Positions 18,250 through 59,653 of a DNA stretch of 64,000 bases are shown here, one piece after another. Under the pieces are notes generated by a model. It was not told where the DNA came from. It did no database searches and was given only the letters and a program-made list of their open reading frames with translations. The translations under genes were made by a program, and so were the position numbers. How positions within the stretch are numbered: the stretch's first letter is position 1; the number at the start of each line of letters is the position of its first letter. The stretch is from positions 512,001-576,000 of the forward strand of contig CBDDEL010000017.1 of assembly GCA_965226885.1 (NCBI GenBank), written 5' to 3'. This DNA comes from Opitutales bacterium (GTDB lineage: Bacteria > Verrucomicrobiota > Verrucomicrobiia > Opitutales > UBA2987).

Positions 18250-19531
18250 ATGCCTTCTTTAGAAGACAGCCTCTTTCGCCGAATCGAAGATATGACGGAT
18301 GAAATGGCCCGCTTCGCATCCGATCTGATTAAGATTCCGACCATAAATCCGCCCGGAGAAAACTATCGCCAGTGCGCCGAAATTATCGGCTCGCGCCTTC
18401 AGGAGTTCGGGTTTGCGGTGGATTATTTGACAGCCAGTGACAGGCCCGAACACTCCGCCGATTTTCCCCGTATCAATTATCAATGTTGTGGGGACCCGGC
18501 CCGGAAGACGGGAAAGACCGTCCCTGCACCTCAACGGCCATTTCGACGTGGTGCCTCCGGGGGACGGCTGGACCTTCGACCCCTTTTCCGGAAAAATCGA
18601 AAACGGACGCGTTTACGGCCGTGGCAGCGCCGATATGAAGGCAGGCCTGGCCGCCGCCATTTTTACCGCCGAGGCCATCCGGCGCGAGGGCATCGAGCTG
18701 GGCGGGAATCTTCAAATCAGCGGCTCCGTGGACGAGGAAAGCGGTGGATATGCCGGTGTCGGCTGGCTGGCTGAAAACGGCATTATTTGTTCAAAAAACA
18801 CCGATTACGTCATCATACCCGAACCATTCGGGAAGGATCGTGTATGCCTGGGCCACCGGGGAGTTTACTGGTTCAAAGTAACTGCCCTGGGGAAAATCGC
18901 CCACGGCTCGATGCCTTTTCTGGTAGAAAATGCCATTCAAGGCATGGGGCGTCTGCTCGAATCCATGCGCCACGACCTCCTGCCCGCCCTCCACAAAAGA
19001 AAAACGGTTATGCCGGTTGTGCCCCCCGAGGCGCGAAAACCAACCTTGAATATTAATTCCATTACCGGGGGTCAAAACGAGGGGATGGGGCAAACGCCCT
19101 GTGTGGCCGACCGCTGCGAAGCTATTTTCGACCGGCGTTTTCTGTTAGAAGAAAATTTCGATGAAGTGCGCCACGAAATTAAACTCATTCTAGCCGCAAC
19201 GGAAAAAAAGGAGTCATCCCTCAAATTCGATTTGGAAGATTTGATGATGGTTCCGCCCGTCAGCGCTCCGGAGGACTGCCGCCTGGTCCAGGTTTTGGAT
19301 CACGCAGCGGTCAAGGTTTTGGGCCAAAAACTGGATAAAGTGGCCAGTCCCGGGACTTACGACCATAAACATGTTTATCTCCGCGGCGGCATCGACCAAT
19401 GCGTGGCCTTCGGACCGGGCAAGCTTGAGCTGGCTCACCAGCCGGATGAATATTGCTCTATCGACGATATGGTCGCTTACGCCAAAATACTGGCCCTGGC
19501 CCTTTTGGACCTAACGAATTCAACTCCCTGA
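18250..19531 (+). pseudogene. ArgE/DapE-family M20 deacylase, frameshifted
   Basis: IPTINPPGENY in one frame, NGHFDVV, GRGSADMK, DEESGG, AHQPDE in another; removing a 7-bp duplication at 18471-18484 restores FPRINVVGTR. Confidence 0.88.
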
Positions 19532-19732: not shown

Positions 19733-20548
19733 ATGGCACGAAAAATCACTTTCGTAAATTACAAAGGCGGGGTTAGCAAAACCTCGCTCATTGTCAACAC
19801 AGCAGCCTGTTTGGCCCAAAAAGGCTTTCGGGTTCTTCTCTTTGATTTTGACACCCAGTCCAATGCCAGCATTTGGCTCATGCGTTTGGACCGGTGGAAC
19901 AAGATAAACATCTCAGGAGAAGGCTCCGTCTACTCCATTTTCAATCCCGGAAAAGTCCACGTCAAGGACCTCATCATCAAGGATGTGGTAAAAAACAAAA
20001 CGGGGGAAATTCTCCTCCCCGGTCTGGATCTGGTGCCCACCACCTTCAACCTGGTCGATCTGGAAAGCGATTACGAGGGCGACCCAAAAACACCCCCCTA
20101 CCTGCTCTTTCACCAGCAAGTAGCGGAACTCGAATCCGAATACGACTACATCCTGTTCGACTGCCCGCCCAACATCCTACGGGCCTCCCAATGCGCCGTT
20201 TTCACCAGCAATGAAATCCTCGTGCCGTCCAATCCGGATGCCTTGAGCCTGATCGGCTTTACCCTCTTGGTGGAAAAACTGATGCTCTTACACCGCCGTT
20301 CGGCAAGTTTTAGGGTCAGCGGCATGAGTACGGCGGCCCAGATCAAGGGCATCATATTTAATTCAATCAAGGCCAATGTCGATATAGAGGTGCCGAAAAT
20401 GCGGATGCAACTGCGCCTGAATCAGTTTCGAAACCAAAAAAGGGTTTCCCCCAAAGCCAAAATTTACCAGACAACGATTCGAGACGCCACCGTTGTGCGA
20501 AGAGCCGTAACGCTCGGTTTGCCGGTCAACCTGGTCGTAAAAGATTGA
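19733..20548 (+). pseudogene. ParA/Soj-family ATPase, C-terminally truncated by IS3
   Basis: NYKGGVSKT, DFDTQSN, FDCPP; the stop codon is the first TGA of the IS; the remainder is not found after the IS. Confidence 0.8.
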
Positions 20549-21873
20549 TGTGCACTGGAAAAAGTGGACACGAGATTCTCCTAAATGGAGAATCGAAGCA
20601 TGGGAAGAAGACGCTTTAGTATAGAGTTCAAAAATGAGGCAGTTCAACTGATGATACTCGATGGTCTGAGCGCCACCGAGGTATCGACCAAACTTGGGGT
20701 CAACACCAACCAATTGTATAGGTGGAAGAGGCTCTATCTGGACGATCAGCAGGGCGAAGCCACCTCAAAGCGACAGAGCAGTCCGAAGGAGATGGCGGCC
20801 GAGATAGATCGTCTTCGCAAAGAGCTGCGCCGCTCGGAGCGGATCAACCAGATACTAAAAAAAACGGTGGGCTACTTTGCCAAGGACGAACAATGAAGTA
20901 CCAGTTTGTCAAAGACAACGAGGGGCGCTTCAAGATCGAGGAAATATGCTCGGCGATGGGGATTTGTCGCAGTGGCTATTACTGCTGGAGGCCCCGAGCG
21001 CCCTCGGCCCGGCGGATCGAGGACGAGGGAATCAAGGGGGCGATCCTGAAGGTACACAAAGAGGCCAAGGGCCGCTATGGGCATCGGCCAATGCACCGCC
21101 ATCTGAAGGATGATGAGGGCATCGATTGCGGCCGTGACCGGGCTCTGCGTCTGATGCGTGAAATGGGAATCAAAAGCACCCAGAGTAAACGCTTTAAGCC
21201 ATTAAAAACCAACAGTAACCATCCCTATGGTTACAGCCCCAATGTGCTTAAAAAGCATGGCCAGCCGACCCATATCGACGAGGTCTGGGTGGCGGACACG
21301 ACCTACCTACGGACCCTGGCCGGTTGGATGTACTTGGCCACGGTGATGGACCTGTTCAGCCGACGCCTGCTGGGCTGGAGCGTTTCCAACCACAACGACG
21401 CGAAGCTGGTTGGCAAGGCCCTCAAAGCCGCGGCCATGACCCGCGGCACACTGCGCACCGGGATTATTCATCACAGCGATCGGGGCAGCCCCTACGGCAG
21501 CGACGACTATCAGAGGCTGGTCTCTGAACTAGGCATGAAGCCGAGCATGAGCGCCCAAGGCAACTGCTACGACAACGCGGCCATGGAATCGTTCTACGGC
21601 CGCTTCAAGACCAGCACGATTCGAGGCCGCCACTTTGCCGACGAGCGCGAACTGCGATCAACTGTCTTCGAATACGTGGAAATCTTCTACAACCGATATC
21701 GCAAACATTCCTCTCTGAGTTACCAAAGCCCAGTCCAATTCGAGGAAAATATTTGCCCCCCATGGGGGGCAACGAGAAAACAAAACCCTTTACCAAAACA
21801 AGCCGCCTGACACACTAATCAATAAACAATGAATATAAGAGAATCCCGTGTCCAACAAATCCAGTACACGTCA
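20546..21873 (+). mobile_element. IS3-family element, copy 2 (no TSD; joins parA 3' to ffh)
   Basis: Same IRs and ORFs as copy 1; flanks AGAT / TTAA do not match. Confidence 0.97.
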
Positions 21874-23217
21874 TTAACAGATCGATTGGGCAAGGCCTTG
21901 CGCAACTTGCGGGGGGTGGGCAAATTGTCCGAGGAGAATATGGCGGAGGCCCTGAAGGAGGTCCGCACGGCTTTGCTGGGGGCGGATGTGCACTTCCGGG
22001 TGGCGCGGGAATTTGTCGATCGGGTGAAAAAGGAGTGCATCGGCCAGGAGGTGACCAAGTCGGTTACGCCGGGGCAGATGGTGGTCAATATCATCAATAA
22101 GGAGCTGATCCGGCTGCTGGGCGAGGGAACCGCCGCATTGGTCGATAAAAAGCCTCTGCGGATTCTGTTGGTGGGCTTGCATGGTTCGGGAAAAACGACC
22201 ACCGCGGTAAAGCTGGCGCGGCGGCTGCGCTCCCAGGGATACCGACCGCTGGTGGCGGCTTGCGATGTTTACCGCCCGGCCGCCATCGACCAGTTGGAAA
22301 CTCTGGCCGCGCAGGAATCGATTCAATTTTACGCCAACCGGGATTCAAAGAATGTCCCGGCGATCGCCAGGGAAGCGGTCGAATACGCCAAAAAGAATGA
22401 TGCCGACGCGGTTATTTTCGACACCGCGGGCCGGTTGCAGATTGATGAGGAGTTGATCGAGGAGATCAAGAAGGTGCGCCAAAAGACGTTGCCCCATGAA
22501 GTTCTGCTGGTGGCCGACAGCGCCTTGGGGCAGGAGGCGGTCAACGTGGCAAAGTCGTTTCATGAGGCGGTCGAGCTGAGCGGGATCATTTTGACCAAAC
22601 TGGACGGGGATGCCCGGGGGGGGGCGGCCCTGTCCATGAAAACCGTCACCGGGGTGCCCATAAAATTTGCCGGTGCTGGTGAGAAAATGGACGATCTGGA
22701 GGTATTTCACCCGGACCGGATGGCTTCGCGGATTCTTGGCATGGGGGATGTTGTCTCGTTGGTGGAGAAGGTCCAGGAGACGGTGGATAAGGAAGAAGCC
22801 GAGGTGCTGGCTAAAAAGCTGCGGAGTGCGGATTTTAACCTGGAGGATTTTCTGAATCAGTTGAAACAGGTTAAAAAAATGGGTTCAATGGGCAGTTTGA
22901 TGAAGATGATCCCGGGAGCGGGCGACATCGAATTTGGCGACAAGGAAGAAAAACAAATGAAGCGGACGGAGTCCATTATTCTGTCCATGACACCCGGGGA
23001 ACGGCAAAATCCGCGTATCCTGAGCGGCAGCCGGCGCAAACGGATCGCCGACGGCTCCGGGGTGCAGGTGCGCGAAGTCAACGCCCTCCTCAAGCAGTTC
23101 ACCCAGATGCGTAAAATGATGAAAAAAATGAAAGGCACGGGTGGGAAAAAAATGATGCGAAAAATGCAGGCCATGACTGGCGGGCGCAACCGTATGCCCG
23201 GTTTGGGCGGGATGTGA
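21829..23217 (+). CDS. ffh: Signal recognition particle protein Ffh (first 15 codons IS-derived)
   Basis: [43 protein letters not shown]-domain RIAxGSG. Confidence 0.95.
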
Positions 23218-24038: not shown

Positions 24039-26602
24039 ATGCCAATTATTGAGCATTCCAACTATTCGCCGCCCTTCGGTTTTAAAAACAAGCACCTGCA
24101 AACCATTTTACCTACCTTGACCCGAAAGGTGCGCGGGATTTGCTATGAGAGAGAGCGTATAACCACTCCGGATGAGGATTTCATCGACCTTGATTGGTCG
24201 AAAATCGGGTCGCGGAAGGTTACGATATTATGCCATGGACTGGAATCCGGCTCCGGGGAGCCCTACATGATGGGAATGGTCAAAGCCTTGAACCGGAGAG
24301 GCTGGGATGCCGCCGCCATGAATTTCCGGGGCTGCAGCGGCGAGCCCAACAAGCGAATGCGCTCCTATCACAGTGGGGCATCGGACGATCTGCAGTCCGT
24401 CCTGAAATATATCCAAAGCCGTAATCGTTATGAAAAGGTTTCTCTGATCGGATTTAGCCCGGATATTTCGTAAAAAAGTATCGTTGATATGCTTAACTGC
24501 TGATATACAGCAGGATAGATCAATAATTAAAGCAATATCAGCGATGACAAAAGGTAAACAATTAAAGCTACAGTTGACAAGGGTAAAAGGCCGCCGTGTG
24601 CGGGTTGATTTCAAGGGCGGAGAGGTTACTTCGGATGCCGGACTGCTTTTGATCCGGGAAGTGGATCGGCAGTTGGGCTTGACCGAACGAGCGGCCCGAC
24701 AGTTAGTGGACAAACGGCAGAAGGGCAAAGTACGCCATGAGGTATTGGGGATGCTGCGGCAGCGCGTTTACGGGCTGGTGGCGGGCTATGAGGATTTGAA
24801 CGACTTTGATACCCTGCGCCACGATCCATTGTTGCAAACGGTAACGGGGCGCATTGAAACGTTGGCCAGCGCGCCGACTTTGTGTCGTTTTGAAAACGGG
24901 CAGGATCGGCGGGCGGCCTTTGCGGTAAACGAGCTGTTGGTCGAACAGTTCATGGGCTCCTTTGCCGAGGAACCCGAAGAGATCATCCTGGACTTTGACG
25001 GCACCGACAATCCGGTGCACGGGCTCCAGGAGGGACGTTTTTTCCACGGTTATTATGATCATTACTGTTTTCTGCCGCTATATGTTTTTTGCGGTGATCA
25101 GCTGCTGGTGGCCTACCTGCGGCCGAGCAAGATCGATGCCAGCAAGCATGCCGGGGCCATCCTCAAATTGCTGGTTAGACGGATTCGCCAAAGCTGGCCC
25201 CGTACGCGGATTATTTGGCGCGCCGACAGTGGATTTTGTCGAGACCGGATACTCTCTTGGTGCGACCGCAACGAAGTTAGTTACATCGTGGGGATGGCTC
25301 GCAATGCACGCTTGCAGCAAGACGCCCAGCAGTTGCAAAAGCAGGCCAAAGAATGGTTCGAACTAAGGGGTAAAAAACAACGGTTATTCCAGGACTTCGT
25401 CTATGCTGCCGATTCGTGGCGATGGCTGCGGTTGGTCATCCATAAAGCCGAACACACCGCACAGGGGTCCAACCCGCGCTTCGTGGTGACGAACCTGCCG
25501 GGCGATCCCCAGGAGCTTTACGACAAGGTATACTGTGGCCGCGGTGAAATGGAGAACCGCATCAAGGAACAGATGCAATTGTTCAGCGAGCGCACCAGCG
25601 CCCATCAATGGTGGGCCAATCAGTGGCGATTGCTCTTGTCGGCGCTGGCCTACACCTTGATGGAAGCCATGCGCCGGTTAGCCTTAAAAGGGACGAAGTG
25701 GGCGCGGGCCCAATGCCACACCCTGCGGCTCAAATTAATCAAGATCGGAGCGGTCATCGTGCGCAACACCCGAACGATTCACTTTCACCTAAGTGAGAGT
25801 TATCCTTGGGCCAGTCTTTTCAACCATGCGGCCCGCCGATTGGTGCCAACCTAAAGGGTGCATTGGTGCTGCCCCCGGCACTACCGAACCAATGGGGGAA
25901 AGGGGGCAGTGTCTCTACACCCTGAAAAACACCTAAAAATCAAGACGATCTGCTCAAAATACAAAGAAATCCATCTCCAATAGCAATAACGAGCCAAACT
26001 TTACCCTTCATGAAATATCCGGGTTAGTCTGGGAGGCAATCTGGTTCTCAAATACATTGGGGAAAGAGGAGCAGAGGGAAAGAGGAGCAGACATATCCCG
26101 ACAGATTGTTGCCGCCGCCGCCATCTCAGTTCCGTGTGATCTTGAATCCTGCTCCCGGCAAATGGCCCAAACCGGAAACAGATTCTATATGCGAAGGTTT
26201 ATCAAAAAACTGATTCGTAAAATGGAACCTAAATGCGCCATGCCGGGCGCGCCGTTCTGCCTGGAGGATTTTCTGCCCATGAAAACATTCGAGGAGTTCG
26301 ACGATCTTTATACGGGCCCCGTTCACGGATTTCGGGACGTGGTGGACTATTGGACTCAATGCAGCTCCCGCCAATTCCTGCCTAACATCCAAATACCGAC
26401 CTTGCTCATCAATGCGCGGGACGACCCATTTCTTTCCCCTAAATGCTACCCGGTTGAGGAAGCGAAAAAGAGCCGATACCTTTACCTGGAAATCCCGCAG
26501 CACGGCGGCCATGTCGGATTCATAACCTTTGGCGGCAAATGCGAATATTGGCATGAGGCCAAAGTATGCGATTTTTTAAGCAGCGGCAAAATGAGTGATT
26601 GA
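24039..26602 (+). pseudogene. YheT-like alpha/beta hydrolase, interrupted by IS1380 and frameshifted
   Basis: HLQT, HGLES, FRGCSG...YHSG; IS inserted in the catalytic Ser codon of GFSLGGN; 16-bp duplication 26060-26091; C-terminal DDPF, GGHVGF. Confidence 0.9.
24458..26023 (+). mobile_element. IS1380-family element, copy A (intact)
   Basis: IRs CCCGGATATTTC / GAAATATCCGGG; TSD TTAG; transposase ending 25854 (TSDAG, RADSGF, RGEMENRIKE). Confidence 0.96.
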
Positions 26603-56841: not shown

Positions 56842-58107
56842 TTAAGGCTGATAACCAGTCACGTTGGTCAAAACAGAGCGCAGGCACCGCCGCAAAAGTC
56901 TATAACTATAATATTGTCGCGCCACCCGGTAGTTGTGGTCCACCATTTTCTGGCATATTTTGGAATCGTCGAGAACACGCCGCACATCGCTCACCGTCTC
57001 CTTGGTTATAATGCCATCCATCACCACCAGCTTGAATCCCTTGGGCTCGATGTCTTGAATGAAGATCGAATAACGGTTAACGACCAAAGGAACCTTAAAG
57101 TAGATAGCCTCCAGCAACGCGTTTCCAAAGCCTTCGTAGGTGCTCGGATAAGTGACCAGATCGGCATGCGGATAAAGGTCCCAAAGAGTATAAATCTTTT
57201 TCCCCTCCGCATCGAATTGACGAACATCGCCAATCCGGTCCGAAATGAGTCGCAAATCCACATTTTCCTCCCGCGCCAATTCCTCCATAAGGTGCCGGTA
57301 CTCAAAACCCTCGTCCCCCGCGTCATGGGAAATAATCAACTTGTATTTGTCCGGATCGCCCAACATGCCAACCAACTTTATAGCATGTTCGATACCCTTG
57401 CGCGGGACAATCCGCGTAGGCTGCAGGATAAAAACATCTTCCGGGCGCAGCCCAATCTGCTCCCGCACATCGCGAGAATACTCATCCGGCTTGGGCGGAG
57501 GATTGGCAAAATCGAAAACATTGGGTATCAGCATCGAACTCACCCCCTTGCGCAGTGAAAGCTGCTCCTGGGCCGCCCGGTTGATAACGGTGTGCTGGAT
57601 ATTCGGTAAAATCGGAGGAAAAGCCATCTCCAGGTAATCCGTCACCGCATTGATCGCATAACGGGTGCGCTCCCAATGGAAATCATGGTGGTGGGCGATG
57701 GCCGGCATCTGTGTTTCCGCCAAAAACTCCGTTATGGCCAAAGCCAGCGGTATATGCATCGGTATAGCCAAGGCGTTTTCCGGCACCAGGATATCGATAT
57801 CGAAATGATCCACATAATCATAGAGCGTCTTTTTCAAATAGGCGGAAATCTCCTGGATACGCTCGCTTACCAAACTGCTGCGGCGCTTTTGCTTCCAGAT
57901 CTTATCCATCAGCCAAAGATTTTCCAGATGCCCGAAATAGGCCTCCGGAATGCAATAGCTGACATCGGGATGCCGGTCGCTCCGCCCGCTGTACCAAAAA
58001 CTGACATGATTATCATCCCACAACATCTGGGCCCACTTGGCACTCTCCAAAGAGACCCCATCAGTGCCCGCGAAACGCGTAGAGACAAAACCGATATTTT
58101 TAGCCAT
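56842..58107 (-). CDS. GT4 glycosyltransferase (MggA-like)
   Basis: DGVSLE..KW, HHHDFHWER, QPTRIVPRKGIE, YEGFGNALLEA. Confidence 0.82.
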   Translation of the reverse strand: MAKNIGFVSTRFAGTDGVSLESAKWAQMLWDDNHVSFWYSGRSDRHPDVSYCIPEAYFGHLENLWLMDKIWKQKRRSSLVSERIQEISAYLKKTLYDYVDHFDIDILVPENALAIPMHIPLALAITEFLAETQMPAIAHHHDFHWERTRYAINAVTDYLEMAFPPILPNIQHTVINRAAQEQLSLRKGVSSMLIPNVFDFANPPPKPDEYSRDVREQIGLRPEDVFILQPTRIVPRKGIEHAIKLVGMLGDPDKYKLIISHDAGDEGFEYRHLMEELAREENVDLRLISDRIGDVRQFDAEGKKIYTLWDLYPHADLVTYPSTYEGFGNALLEAIYFKVPLVVNRYSIFIQDIEPKGFKLVVMDGIITKETVSDVRRVLDDSKICQKMVDHNYRVARQYYSYRLLRRCLRSVLTNVTGYQP

Positions 58108-58325
58108 CAAGACCAATCAGGGCCACTGCCGGAAACTCTCAAAATGAAAGCCCCAACAAACAACCCAGAAATAATGAATATATAAAATTTAAAAGACATT
58201 ATCTATGAACAACTTCCACGCAAAAGCAAGACCAATATCCTCCAAAAAAAAGCAACCCGAAAAATTATAAAATTAAGACCCCTACCGGAAATCGTATCTT
58301 TATCACCCATCCGGCATCCACCATC

Positions 58326-59653
58326 TGACGTGTACTGGATTTGTTGGACACGGGATTCTCTTATATTCATTGTTTATTGATTAGTGTGTCAGGCGGCTTG
58401 TTTTGGTAAAGGGTTTTGTTTTCTCGTTGCCCCCCATGGGGGGCAAATATTTTCCTCGAATTGGACTGGGCTTTGGTAACTCAGAGAGGAATGTTTGCGA
58501 TATCGGTTGTAGAAGATTTCCACGTATTCGAAGACAGTTGATCGCAGTTCGCGCTCGTCGGCAAAGTGGCGGCCTCGAATCGTGCTGGTCTTGAAGCGGC
58601 CGTAGAACGATTCCATGGCCGCGTTGTCGTAGCAGTTGCCTTGGGCGCTCATGCTCGGCTTCATGCCTAGTTCAGAGACCAGCCTCTGATAGTCGTCGCT
58701 GGCGTAGGGGCTGCCCCGATCGCTGTGATGAATAATCCCGGTGCGCAGTGTGCCGCGGGTCATGGCCGCGGCTTTGAGGGCCTTGCCAACCAGCTTCGCG
58801 TCGTTGTGGTTGGAAACGCTCCAGCCCAGCAGGCGTCGGCTGAACAGGTCCATCACCGTGGCCAAGTACATCCAACCGGCCAGGGTCCGTAGGTAGGTCG
58901 TGTCCGCCACCCAGACCTCGTCGATATGGGTCGGCTGGCCATGCTTTTTAAGCACATTGGGGCTGTAACCATAGGGATGGTTACTGTTGGTTTTTAATGG
59001 CTTAAAGCGTTTACTCTGGGTGCTTTTGATTCCCATTTCACGCATCAGACGCAGAGCCCGGTCACGGCCGCAATCGATGCCCTCATCATCCTTCAGATGG
59101 CGGTGCATTGGCCGATGCCCATAGCGGCCCTTGGCCTCTTTGTGTACCTTCAGGATCGCCCCCTTGATTCCCTCGTCCTCGATCCGCCGGGCCGAGGGCG
59201 CTCGGGGCCTCCAGCAGTAATAGCCACTGCGACAAATCCCCATCGCCGAGCATATTTCCTCGATCTTGAAGCGCCCCTCGTTGTCTTTGACAAACTGGTA
59301 CTTCATTGTTCGTCCTTGGCAAAGTAGCCCACCGTTTTTTTTAGTATCTGGTTGATCCGCTCCGAGCGGCGCAGCTCTTTGCGAAGACGATCTATCTCGG
59401 CCGCCATCTCCTTCGGACTGCTCTGTCGCTTTGAGGTGGCTTCGCCCTGCTGATCGTCCAGATAGAGCCTCTTCCACCTATACAATTGGTTGGTGTTGAC
59501 CCCAAGTTTGGTCGATACCTCGGTGGCGCTCAGACCATCGAGTATCATCAGTTGAACTGCCTCATTTTTGAACTCTATACTAAAGCGTCTTCTTCCCATG
59601 CTTCGATTCTCCATTTAGGAGAATCTCGTGTCCACTTTTTCCAGTGCACATCA
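58326..59653 (-). mobile_element. IS3-family element, copy 8
   Basis: Same element; 3-bp TSD ATC; intergenic. Confidence 0.97.

Follow-up and report, generated by a model that had tools for sequence, protein, structure and literature searches.

An ffh gene probably started from within an IS3-family insertion sequence in a marine Opitutales genome

The gene ffh, which encodes the SRP54/Ffh protein of the signal recognition particle (SRP), stands directly behind the right end of an IS3-family insertion sequence (IS) in the transposon-swamped genome of a marine Opitutales bacterium, and an ATG within that IS end opens an open reading frame (ORF) that runs in frame into ffh. The window analyzed is the 64,000-nucleotide (nt) stretch G000:C17:512001–576000, taken from the 5.48-Mb genome G000 (17 contigs, completeness 96.33%, contamination 1.8%), whose nearest named kin are uncultured Opitutales MAGs of the Verrucomicrobiota; positions given without a contig name are those of the window. 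On the + strand, the gene order around the junction is a ParA-like ATPase gene, the 1328-bp element, a 462-codon Ffh ORF, and an HpaI-like aldolase gene. The best explanation, favored here with moderate confidence, is that the IS inserted into ffh, that a deletion followed, and that Ffh is now produced from the ATG at 21829 on read-through transcripts, leaving the cell dependent on this IS copy.

The fusion ORF covers 21829–23217 (+) and encodes 462 amino acids (aa). Its ATG and first 15 codons (21829–21873) lie inside the IS with no stop before the junction, and the remainder (21874–23217) is native ffh, beginning at codon 5 (Leu) and complete through its stop codon, with the N, G, and M parts intact. 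The initial annotation, which had the IS right end opening an ORF at this ATG and continuing in frame into ffh, proved correct to the base when compared with the sequence and the ORF list. In the fusion frame upstream of 21829, a TAA is present at 21823–21825 and the TGA stop of the transposase frame orfB at 21808–21810; therefore, 21829 is the only ATG opening this frame before the internal in-frame ATG (Met38) read from the sequence at 21940–21942. The right boundary of the IS at 21873 was set from the 152 right ends found in the genome, and the junction consists of the terminal ...ACGTCA followed immediately by TTAACAGAT. The last four bases of the IS, GTCA (21870–21873), are identical to native ffh, and Ser4 is regenerated because the native gene has GAGTCA at this place. 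What is unambiguously missing from ffh is ATGTTTGA and everything upstream of it. In effect, the net change at the predicted N-terminus would be the exchange of MFE for 14 foreign residues.

The native beginning of the gene is well defined in relatives. In the closest one, G004 (93% aa identity in Ffh), ffh starts with ATGTTTGAGTCATTGACAGAT, translated as MFESLTD, and ATGTTTGAG marks a native start. All 11 ffh loci examined in relatives begin with M-[FL]-E-x before L-[TS], which bears out the proposal that the native ATG and leader are gone and that about four codons were lost. The same M-[FL]-E-x beginning was found in 21/21 ORFs of at least 55% identity in a wider set, from which L004 and L015 were left out after their starts had been miscalled by the script (the L004 start was read by hand). 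Native ffh starts are also retained in the three congeners checked, G004, G002, and G001. The native N-terminus M-[FL]-E-x-L-[ST] is absent from the window protein, and its family membership is unaffected.

Beyond the junction, ffh is undamaged, as first described. The ORF product scores 572.8 bits against TIGR00959 (cut-off 473.2), with residues 15–433 covering profile positions 3–428 of 428, and from codon 5 the gene aligns with that of G004 over 447 codons without a gap (448 vs 448 codons in the comparison of the two genes). The GTPase motifs tested were the P-loop GxxGxGKT, DTAGR, and TKxD; the columns invariant in a 40-sequence alignment are all present (G116, G119, G121, K122, T123, D198, G201, R202, K257, and D259). 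A search of the 5.48-Mb assembly detected one copy of ffh, the other SRP-GTPase match being FtsY, and the absence of a second ffh thus holds for a 96.33%-complete genome. The partners of Ffh are intact as well: the SRP RNA matches RF00169 at full length (model positions 1–97) with 72 bits (gathering score 40), and FtsY matches TIGR00064 with 299.5 bits against 260.7 and contains no stops. The gene is present in all 21 genomes of the order, including those of only 0.8–0.9 Mb.

We regard the IS-borne ATG as the probable working start of ffh, and translation would then begin at 21829, inside the IS right end. Among 1286 unique long ORFs, Shine-Dalgarno-like 4-mers precede starts as often as internal control sites (13.1% vs 13.1%), the corresponding 5-mers occur at 8.6% vs 5.1%, and A+T makes up about 61% of the sequence ahead of starts. 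Judged from these frequencies, the genome does not rely on Shine-Dalgarno pairing. The 25 nt preceding the IS-borne ATG are A+T-rich, and the predicted folding energy of the 60 nt around it is −3.4 kcal/mol, compared with −5.0 kcal/mol at the G004 native start and −17.4 kcal/mol at the ATG at 21940. The orfB stop lies 18 nt upstream in the frame of this ATG, and ribosomes terminating there may also re-initiate at 21829. The product would be an Ffh with a 14-residue IS-encoded leader, probably floppy, ahead of an otherwise intact N1 helix. In the AlphaFold2 model of the fused protein, the mean predicted local distance difference test score (pLDDT) is 79.5, residues 1–12 fall below 50, the NG core is confidently modeled, and helices N1 and N2 comprise residues 14–25 and 35–51, respectively.

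Read-through is the likely source of ffh transcription, since parA, the transposase frames orfA and orfB, and ffh are all located on the + strand, and no + strand terminator was predicted among these four genes. Transcripts would enter ffh from the same-strand transposase promoter, from the upstream parA-like gene, or from both. A sigma-70-like promoter candidate of the transposase lies at 20565–20593 (+) (TGGACA, 17 nt, GAGAAT), a consensus match only, with two such sites against 1.1 expected in shuffled sequences. A G+C-rich 8-bp hairpin near the 3' end of orfB (21753–21772) is followed by a T run on the minus strand only; because the plus strand has no U tract after it, the hairpin is predicted to be terminator-like on the minus strand alone, and rightward transcripts should pass it. 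One study of Bordetella pertussis, in the passages available, counted 101 cases of transcripts from the transposase promoter running past the IS; in 46 of these, the transcript reached a downstream gene of the same orientation (PMC6161684).

Sequencing runs were compared as fragmentary assembled contigs, X1, X3, and X6 being the other runs and X20 the RNA run (a metatranscriptome library). In X20, a 343-nt contig (depth 3.8) contains the last 87 nt of the IS together with 256 nt of the flank of another copy, C14:401075–402400. It is suggestive of transcription reading outward across the IS right end at C14:402400, and DNA carry-over is a possible source of the contig. Pieces from X20 matching 22420–22552 were considered as ffh RNA and rejected, as they are part of a 13.8-kb contig from a different organism.

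The element itself (20546–21873, +) is 1328 bp long with TGA...TCA ends and is one of 115 full-length, nearly identical copies. Its left inverted repeat (20546–20580) matches the right one (21839–21873) at 27/35 positions. The frame orfA (20585–20896, +; 103 aa) matches positions 1–86 of the IS3 transposase profile, and the open frame orfB (20722–21810, +), which contains the DDE transposase part, matches positions 90–369 of 369; the orfB product scores 313.2 bits against NF033516 (cut-off 160), and its frame is that of the ffh fusion ORF. IS3 elements frameshift at A-runs, and an A8 run in the orfA/orfB overlap (20857–20864, +), read from the sequence, is the presumed −1 frameshift site. The traits of the family are thus present: the transposase profile match, the overlapping frames with the A8 run, TG...CA ends, and target duplications of 3–4 bp.

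Partial copies number about 40, and together with the 115 full-length ones they account for 146 left ends and 152 right ends. The 59 copies of exactly 1328 bp differ from the consensus at 0–3 bases, and both frames are intact in 58 of them. The copy adjoining ffh has two differences from the consensus, both in the transposase gene and common to 12 and five other copies, and both of its transposase frames are intact. Its right end is identical to 148/152, and the same ATG with its 15-codon peptide occurs at 148/152 right ends. In five relatives, only IS fragments or kin of 75–91% identity were detected, with no full-length copy in any; end pieces of 24–35 nt at 100% identity do occur in them. 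The burst of this IS is evidently recent and lineage-specific.

Target-site duplications flank 72 of the 115 full copies (35 of 3 bp and 37 of 4 bp) and are absent in 43. The latter figure points to very frequent recombination between IS copies or to deletion. Among the 72 duplicated insertions, the target preference is weakly palindromic, with C at −2 in 35 and G at +2 in 36, and the commonest duplications are GAT and CAT.

Several side observations concern the IS in other respects. At the left end (window 20546–20615), a transcript entering from the left is predicted to form two hairpins (minimum free energy −20.7 kcal/mol, z −3.97, with 0/200 shuffled sequences as stable), the second of which (GAUUCUCC/GGAGAAUC) covers the GGAG ahead of the ATG at 20600. 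These hairpins resemble the arrangement in IS10 and IS50, where fold-back structures inhibit transposase translation on read-in transcripts. At C16:109156–110500, an IS right end is separated by eight bases from the left end of another copy, and this tandem joint is also present in run X1 at a depth of 8.3. Beside another right end on the minus strand of C16 (about 57700–58618), there is a tandem array of the repeated unit SSMEQKLVSLRWNKNWCLFDGTKTGV that is open in all three frames for 212–296 codons. Outside the window, on the minus strand of C17 at about 112750–114630, a full-length HtpG-like ORF (625 aa, starting MTTVSKDKEE) begins 2 nt past another IS right end, and that IS copy stands in place of the entire leader and promoter region of htpG.

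The left side of the ffh-adjacent copy bears on the origin of the junction. There, the initial annotation had recognized an unrelated truncated parA, and comparison with relatives agrees: the ParA-like ATPase gene (19733–20548, +), which matches the ParA family profile, encodes 271 aa compared with 297 aa in G004 and G002, about 26 codons being lost from its 3' end, and its stop TGA (20546–20548) is formed by the first three bases of the IS. The copy has no target duplication, its left flank being GAT/AGAT and its right flank TTA/TTAA, and in 3/3 congeners the parA and ffh orthologues lie on separate contigs. The missing 3' end of parA was not found anywhere in the assembly. The missing 5' region of ffh was looked for beside other IS3 copies with a TTA(A) flank, and none of the 146 left ends carries it; the only one with a TTA flank is unrelated and has its own CTTA duplication. 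When the 365-nt region upstream of ffh in G004 was compared with the genome, only IS1-like and short repeats matched, none covering the last 60 nt, and a genome-wide search for ATGTTTGAGTCA-like sites (at most one mismatch) found none adjoining an IS. Two candidates for an orphan ffh 5' end were dismissed as chance matches: an MFESLT match on C4, which is part of another ORF with no IS adjoining, and a weak leader-like match at C17:567050, likewise with no IS adjoining.

The likeliest and simplest history suggested by this arrangement has two steps, an ordinary IS insertion into ffh and a later deletion between IS copies. The IS3 element would first have separated codon 4 of the sole ffh from codon 5, at a position fitting its target preference. 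Recombination with a co-oriented copy in the parA-like gene would then have deleted the intervening DNA, and with it the promoter, leader, and first four codons of ffh. The GTCA overlap at ffh fits normal IS targeting, because TCA stands directly ahead of the target duplication in 8/72 ordinary insertions, and a microhomology-mediated deletion is for the same reason unneeded as a source of the overlap. An inversion was considered and rejected, as neither reciprocal product is present in the assembly.

Of the sampled words of 21780–22780, fractions of 0.95 and 0.89 were present in runs of two different studies, and run X1 may be the source sample of the genome. In X6, a 267-nt contig joins a native leader (...GAAGTAGAAGTATGTTTGA) to position 21870; it derives from a G004-like relative, since it has six differences over 179 nt. 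The window's strain is marked in ffh by G at 21943, 21954, and 21984. G004-like alleles (21870–22500) form a minority in X1 (3.5 of 9.2) and X3 (2 of 6) and are the sole form in X6. A relative with a native ffh start evidently co-occurs with the window's strain. A scan of metagenome contigs of the Joint Genome Institute (JGI) for the ffh 5' sequence gave 0 matches in a collection that seems to lack this genus.

Could the fusion have been created by the assembler? With 115 nearly identical IS copies, no target duplication at the copy beside ffh, and no bridging contig among those listed, wrong flanks might have been joined across the 1.3-kb repeat, with the ffh 5' end actually lying left of an IS or ffh being uninterrupted. 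A wrong join could swap left flanks, but it could not create unique ffh sequence that starts exactly at the IS terminus; the right junction therefore needs real reads behind it and, on this reasoning, cannot be an assembler invention. If the error lay only on the left side, the ffh 5' end would be expected beside another left end, yet 0/146 have it, and ffh would even then be 1.3 kb away from its start. Target duplications are lacking at 43 of the 115 copies, as genuine recombination would lead one to expect in a genome of this kind, and an assembly artefact is considered very improbable. A start within ffh, with an N-terminally shortened Ffh and no IS-encoded leader, is judged improbable. It would use the ATG at 21940 or one of the TTG/GTG codons at 21883–21930, and in its favor GAGGAG precedes the ATG at 21940, and the predicted fold leaves the stretch with this ATG unpaired. 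The N-terminal helices of SRP GTPases can moreover be removed in vitro with GTPase activity kept, which also counts for an internal start. PMC1904258, in its accessible passages, concerns FtsY only. Nevertheless, Shine-Dalgarno motifs are not enriched at starts in this genome, and GAGGAG is conserved coding sequence that occurs in G004 too. Initiation at Met38 would, according to the model, deprive the four-helix N domain of helix N1 and of the first turn of N2, Met38 is not conserved in the consensus of the 40-sequence alignment, and the RNA around this ATG is far more structured than that around the IS-borne one (−17.4 vs −3.4 kcal/mol).

It is also conceivable, if on balance unlikely, that the fused gene is not what sustains the cells, whether because ffh was very recently knocked out in the sequenced lineage (as a dead end or a variant of low fitness), an intact allele persists in part of the population, the unassembled 3.7% contains another copy, or SRP has become dispensable in the decaying genome. 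The burst is so recent (0–3 differences per copy) that a dead ffh would not yet have acquired secondary damage, and the genome is full of disrupted genes, such as the hydrolase gene cut by an IS1380-family element and the split ArgE/DapE deacylase gene within the window. A closely related strain with a native start is present in the same runs, and ffh is dispensable in a few bacteria, for example Streptococcus mutans. Against this explanation stand the retention of ffh in 21/21 genomes of the order, even those of 0.8–0.9 Mb, the intact SRP RNA and FtsY, and the failure to find a second ffh or an orphan 5' end in 5.48 Mb. An in-frame fusion equipped with an ATG would have at best a 1-in-3 chance if unselected, and the detection of the ffh stretch in the runs of two studies (0.95 and 0.89 of words) indicates a lineage rather than a one-off cell.

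Several results weigh against translation and transcription of ffh from the IS and against dependence on it. A consensus scan detected no sigma-70-like outward promoter at the IS right end, and among the contigs of run X20 none represents the ffh of this organism, though parts of the IS are covered. No contig bridging 21873/21874 is present among the X1 or X3 pieces listed, the uncovered parts being uninformative, and an exact-protein look-up returned the 462-aa protein only from the window's own contig. As much as 3.7% of the genome may be unassembled. The dN/dS of 0.10 (nonsynonymous to synonymous substitution) over the 447 codons aligned with G004 reflects the history before the insertion and is silent on later selection, because the IS copies, 0–3 bases off the consensus, make the insertion far younger than the split from G004 (dS 0.28); in the time after the insertion, ffh should have gained about one mutation. 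Nor do other copies point the same way. IS ends adjoin gene starts without orientation bias (9/152 right ends vs 6/146 left ends). Of the 11 continuations of at least 200 aa from IS into flank, six are in frame 0 compared with two and three in the other frames, and apart from ffh, the long fusions in frame 0 involve remnants from the middle of genes (for a TonB-type receptor, a HAD hydrolase, a glycosyltransferase, and others), so that nothing shows the IS-borne ATG working elsewhere. A systematic use of this ATG was accordingly set aside as unsupported.

Nevertheless, dependence of ffh on the IS for its start codon and transcription is the most economical reading of the sequence, because of the in-frame fusion, the loss of only about four codons, the lack of a second ffh or orphan 5' end, and the intact state of ffh and its partners. 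If so, expression of SRP54/Ffh in the cell would hinge on this one IS copy. The initial annotation had gone further and proposed an incipient domestication of the IS end. Its factual basis stands, namely the fusion, the roughly four lost codons, the single ffh, and the lack of an orphan 5' end, while the notion of domestication does not: the copy is a generic intact IS with no copy-specific changes or loss of mobility, relatives keep their native starts, and the junction is not conserved among them. Dependence, not domestication, is the fitting word. Among 152 right ends, this full IS3-family element would provide the ATG of an essential gene once, apparently by accident, and the start-supplying property of the right end looks fortuitous. 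A bolder idea, which we find doubtful, is that the right end acts as a portable initiation module, an A+T-rich unstructured leader with an ATG open to the last base, whose insertion, in a lineage with no need of Shine-Dalgarno sites, would be survivable in the early codons of even indispensable genes.

Hybrid genes driven by IS are of a known kind, within which the ffh case is a single instance, clean and probably functional. In literature searches of open-access text, no case of an IS-supplied start on ffh was found. In Acinetobacter baumannii, ISAba1 inserted in adeS leads to a truncated AdeS expressed from the Pout of the IS, according to the passages available (PMC3498117). The two cases are alike in that a gene is interrupted by an IS and its remaining downstream part is expressed, here putatively, from IS-borne signals. 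In the passages seen of that report, however, the ISAba1 product is a truncated, deregulated sensor kinase, non-essential and selected by antibiotics, with a demonstrated outward promoter (PMC3498117), whereas ffh is a nearly full-length, universally conserved housekeeping gene whose ATG and first 15 codons lie within the IS and for which no outward promoter was found. The Bordetella pertussis genome is likewise swamped by IS elements, IS481 and others; in the available part of the study on it, Pin reads into co-oriented genes and IS–IS recombination reshuffles the flanks (PMC6161684). That part covers transcription only and contains no translational fusion to an essential gene (PMC6161684). 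Finally, chimeric ORFs that run from a transposon into the 3' part of a disrupted gene have been described, in the portion consulted, as an annotation problem in haloarchaea (PMC4500146). As in those chimeras, an ATG within the element shares, by chance, the reading frame of what is left of the target gene. The haloarchaeal chimeras are, in that same portion, artefacts of dead genes (PMC4500146), whereas the ffh chimera is probably a working gene, because only four codons were lost from a single-copy gene that all relatives keep.

Two neighboring loci of the window also show gene disruption. An IS1380-family element (window 24039–25854; transposase 415.8 bits) truncates an alpha/beta hydrolase gene after 144 aa, and the remaining part matches profile positions 2–140 of 326; G004 has the same ffh–aldolase–hydrolase order and keeps at least 217 aa of the hydrolase. 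Upstream of parA, at 18250–19531, a gene for an ArgE/DapE-family deacylase lies in two overlapping frames (174 and 364 aa). In relatives, this deacylase gene is a single ORF of 413–421 aa in G002 and is split in G004 too (126 and 267 aa).

If the fused ORF works, an essential and conserved component of protein targeting would have survived although a mobile element had taken the place of all its upstream expression signals and its start, and the first residues of Ffh would tolerate a foreign leader of 14 residues. For annotation, caution is advisable, since pipelines may label the fused ffh a pseudogene or assign a wrong start. The gene would further exemplify how a genome with more than 115 IS copies avoids lethal hits, the host being locked into keeping one of the copies. 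Should the doubtful idea of a portable initiation module be true, the sole ffh would irreversibly owe its promoter, 5' untranslated region, start codon, and first 15 residues to a selfish element that is still mobile, and the locus would offer a natural snapshot of how IS bursts are survived and of how dependence of a host on its element begins.

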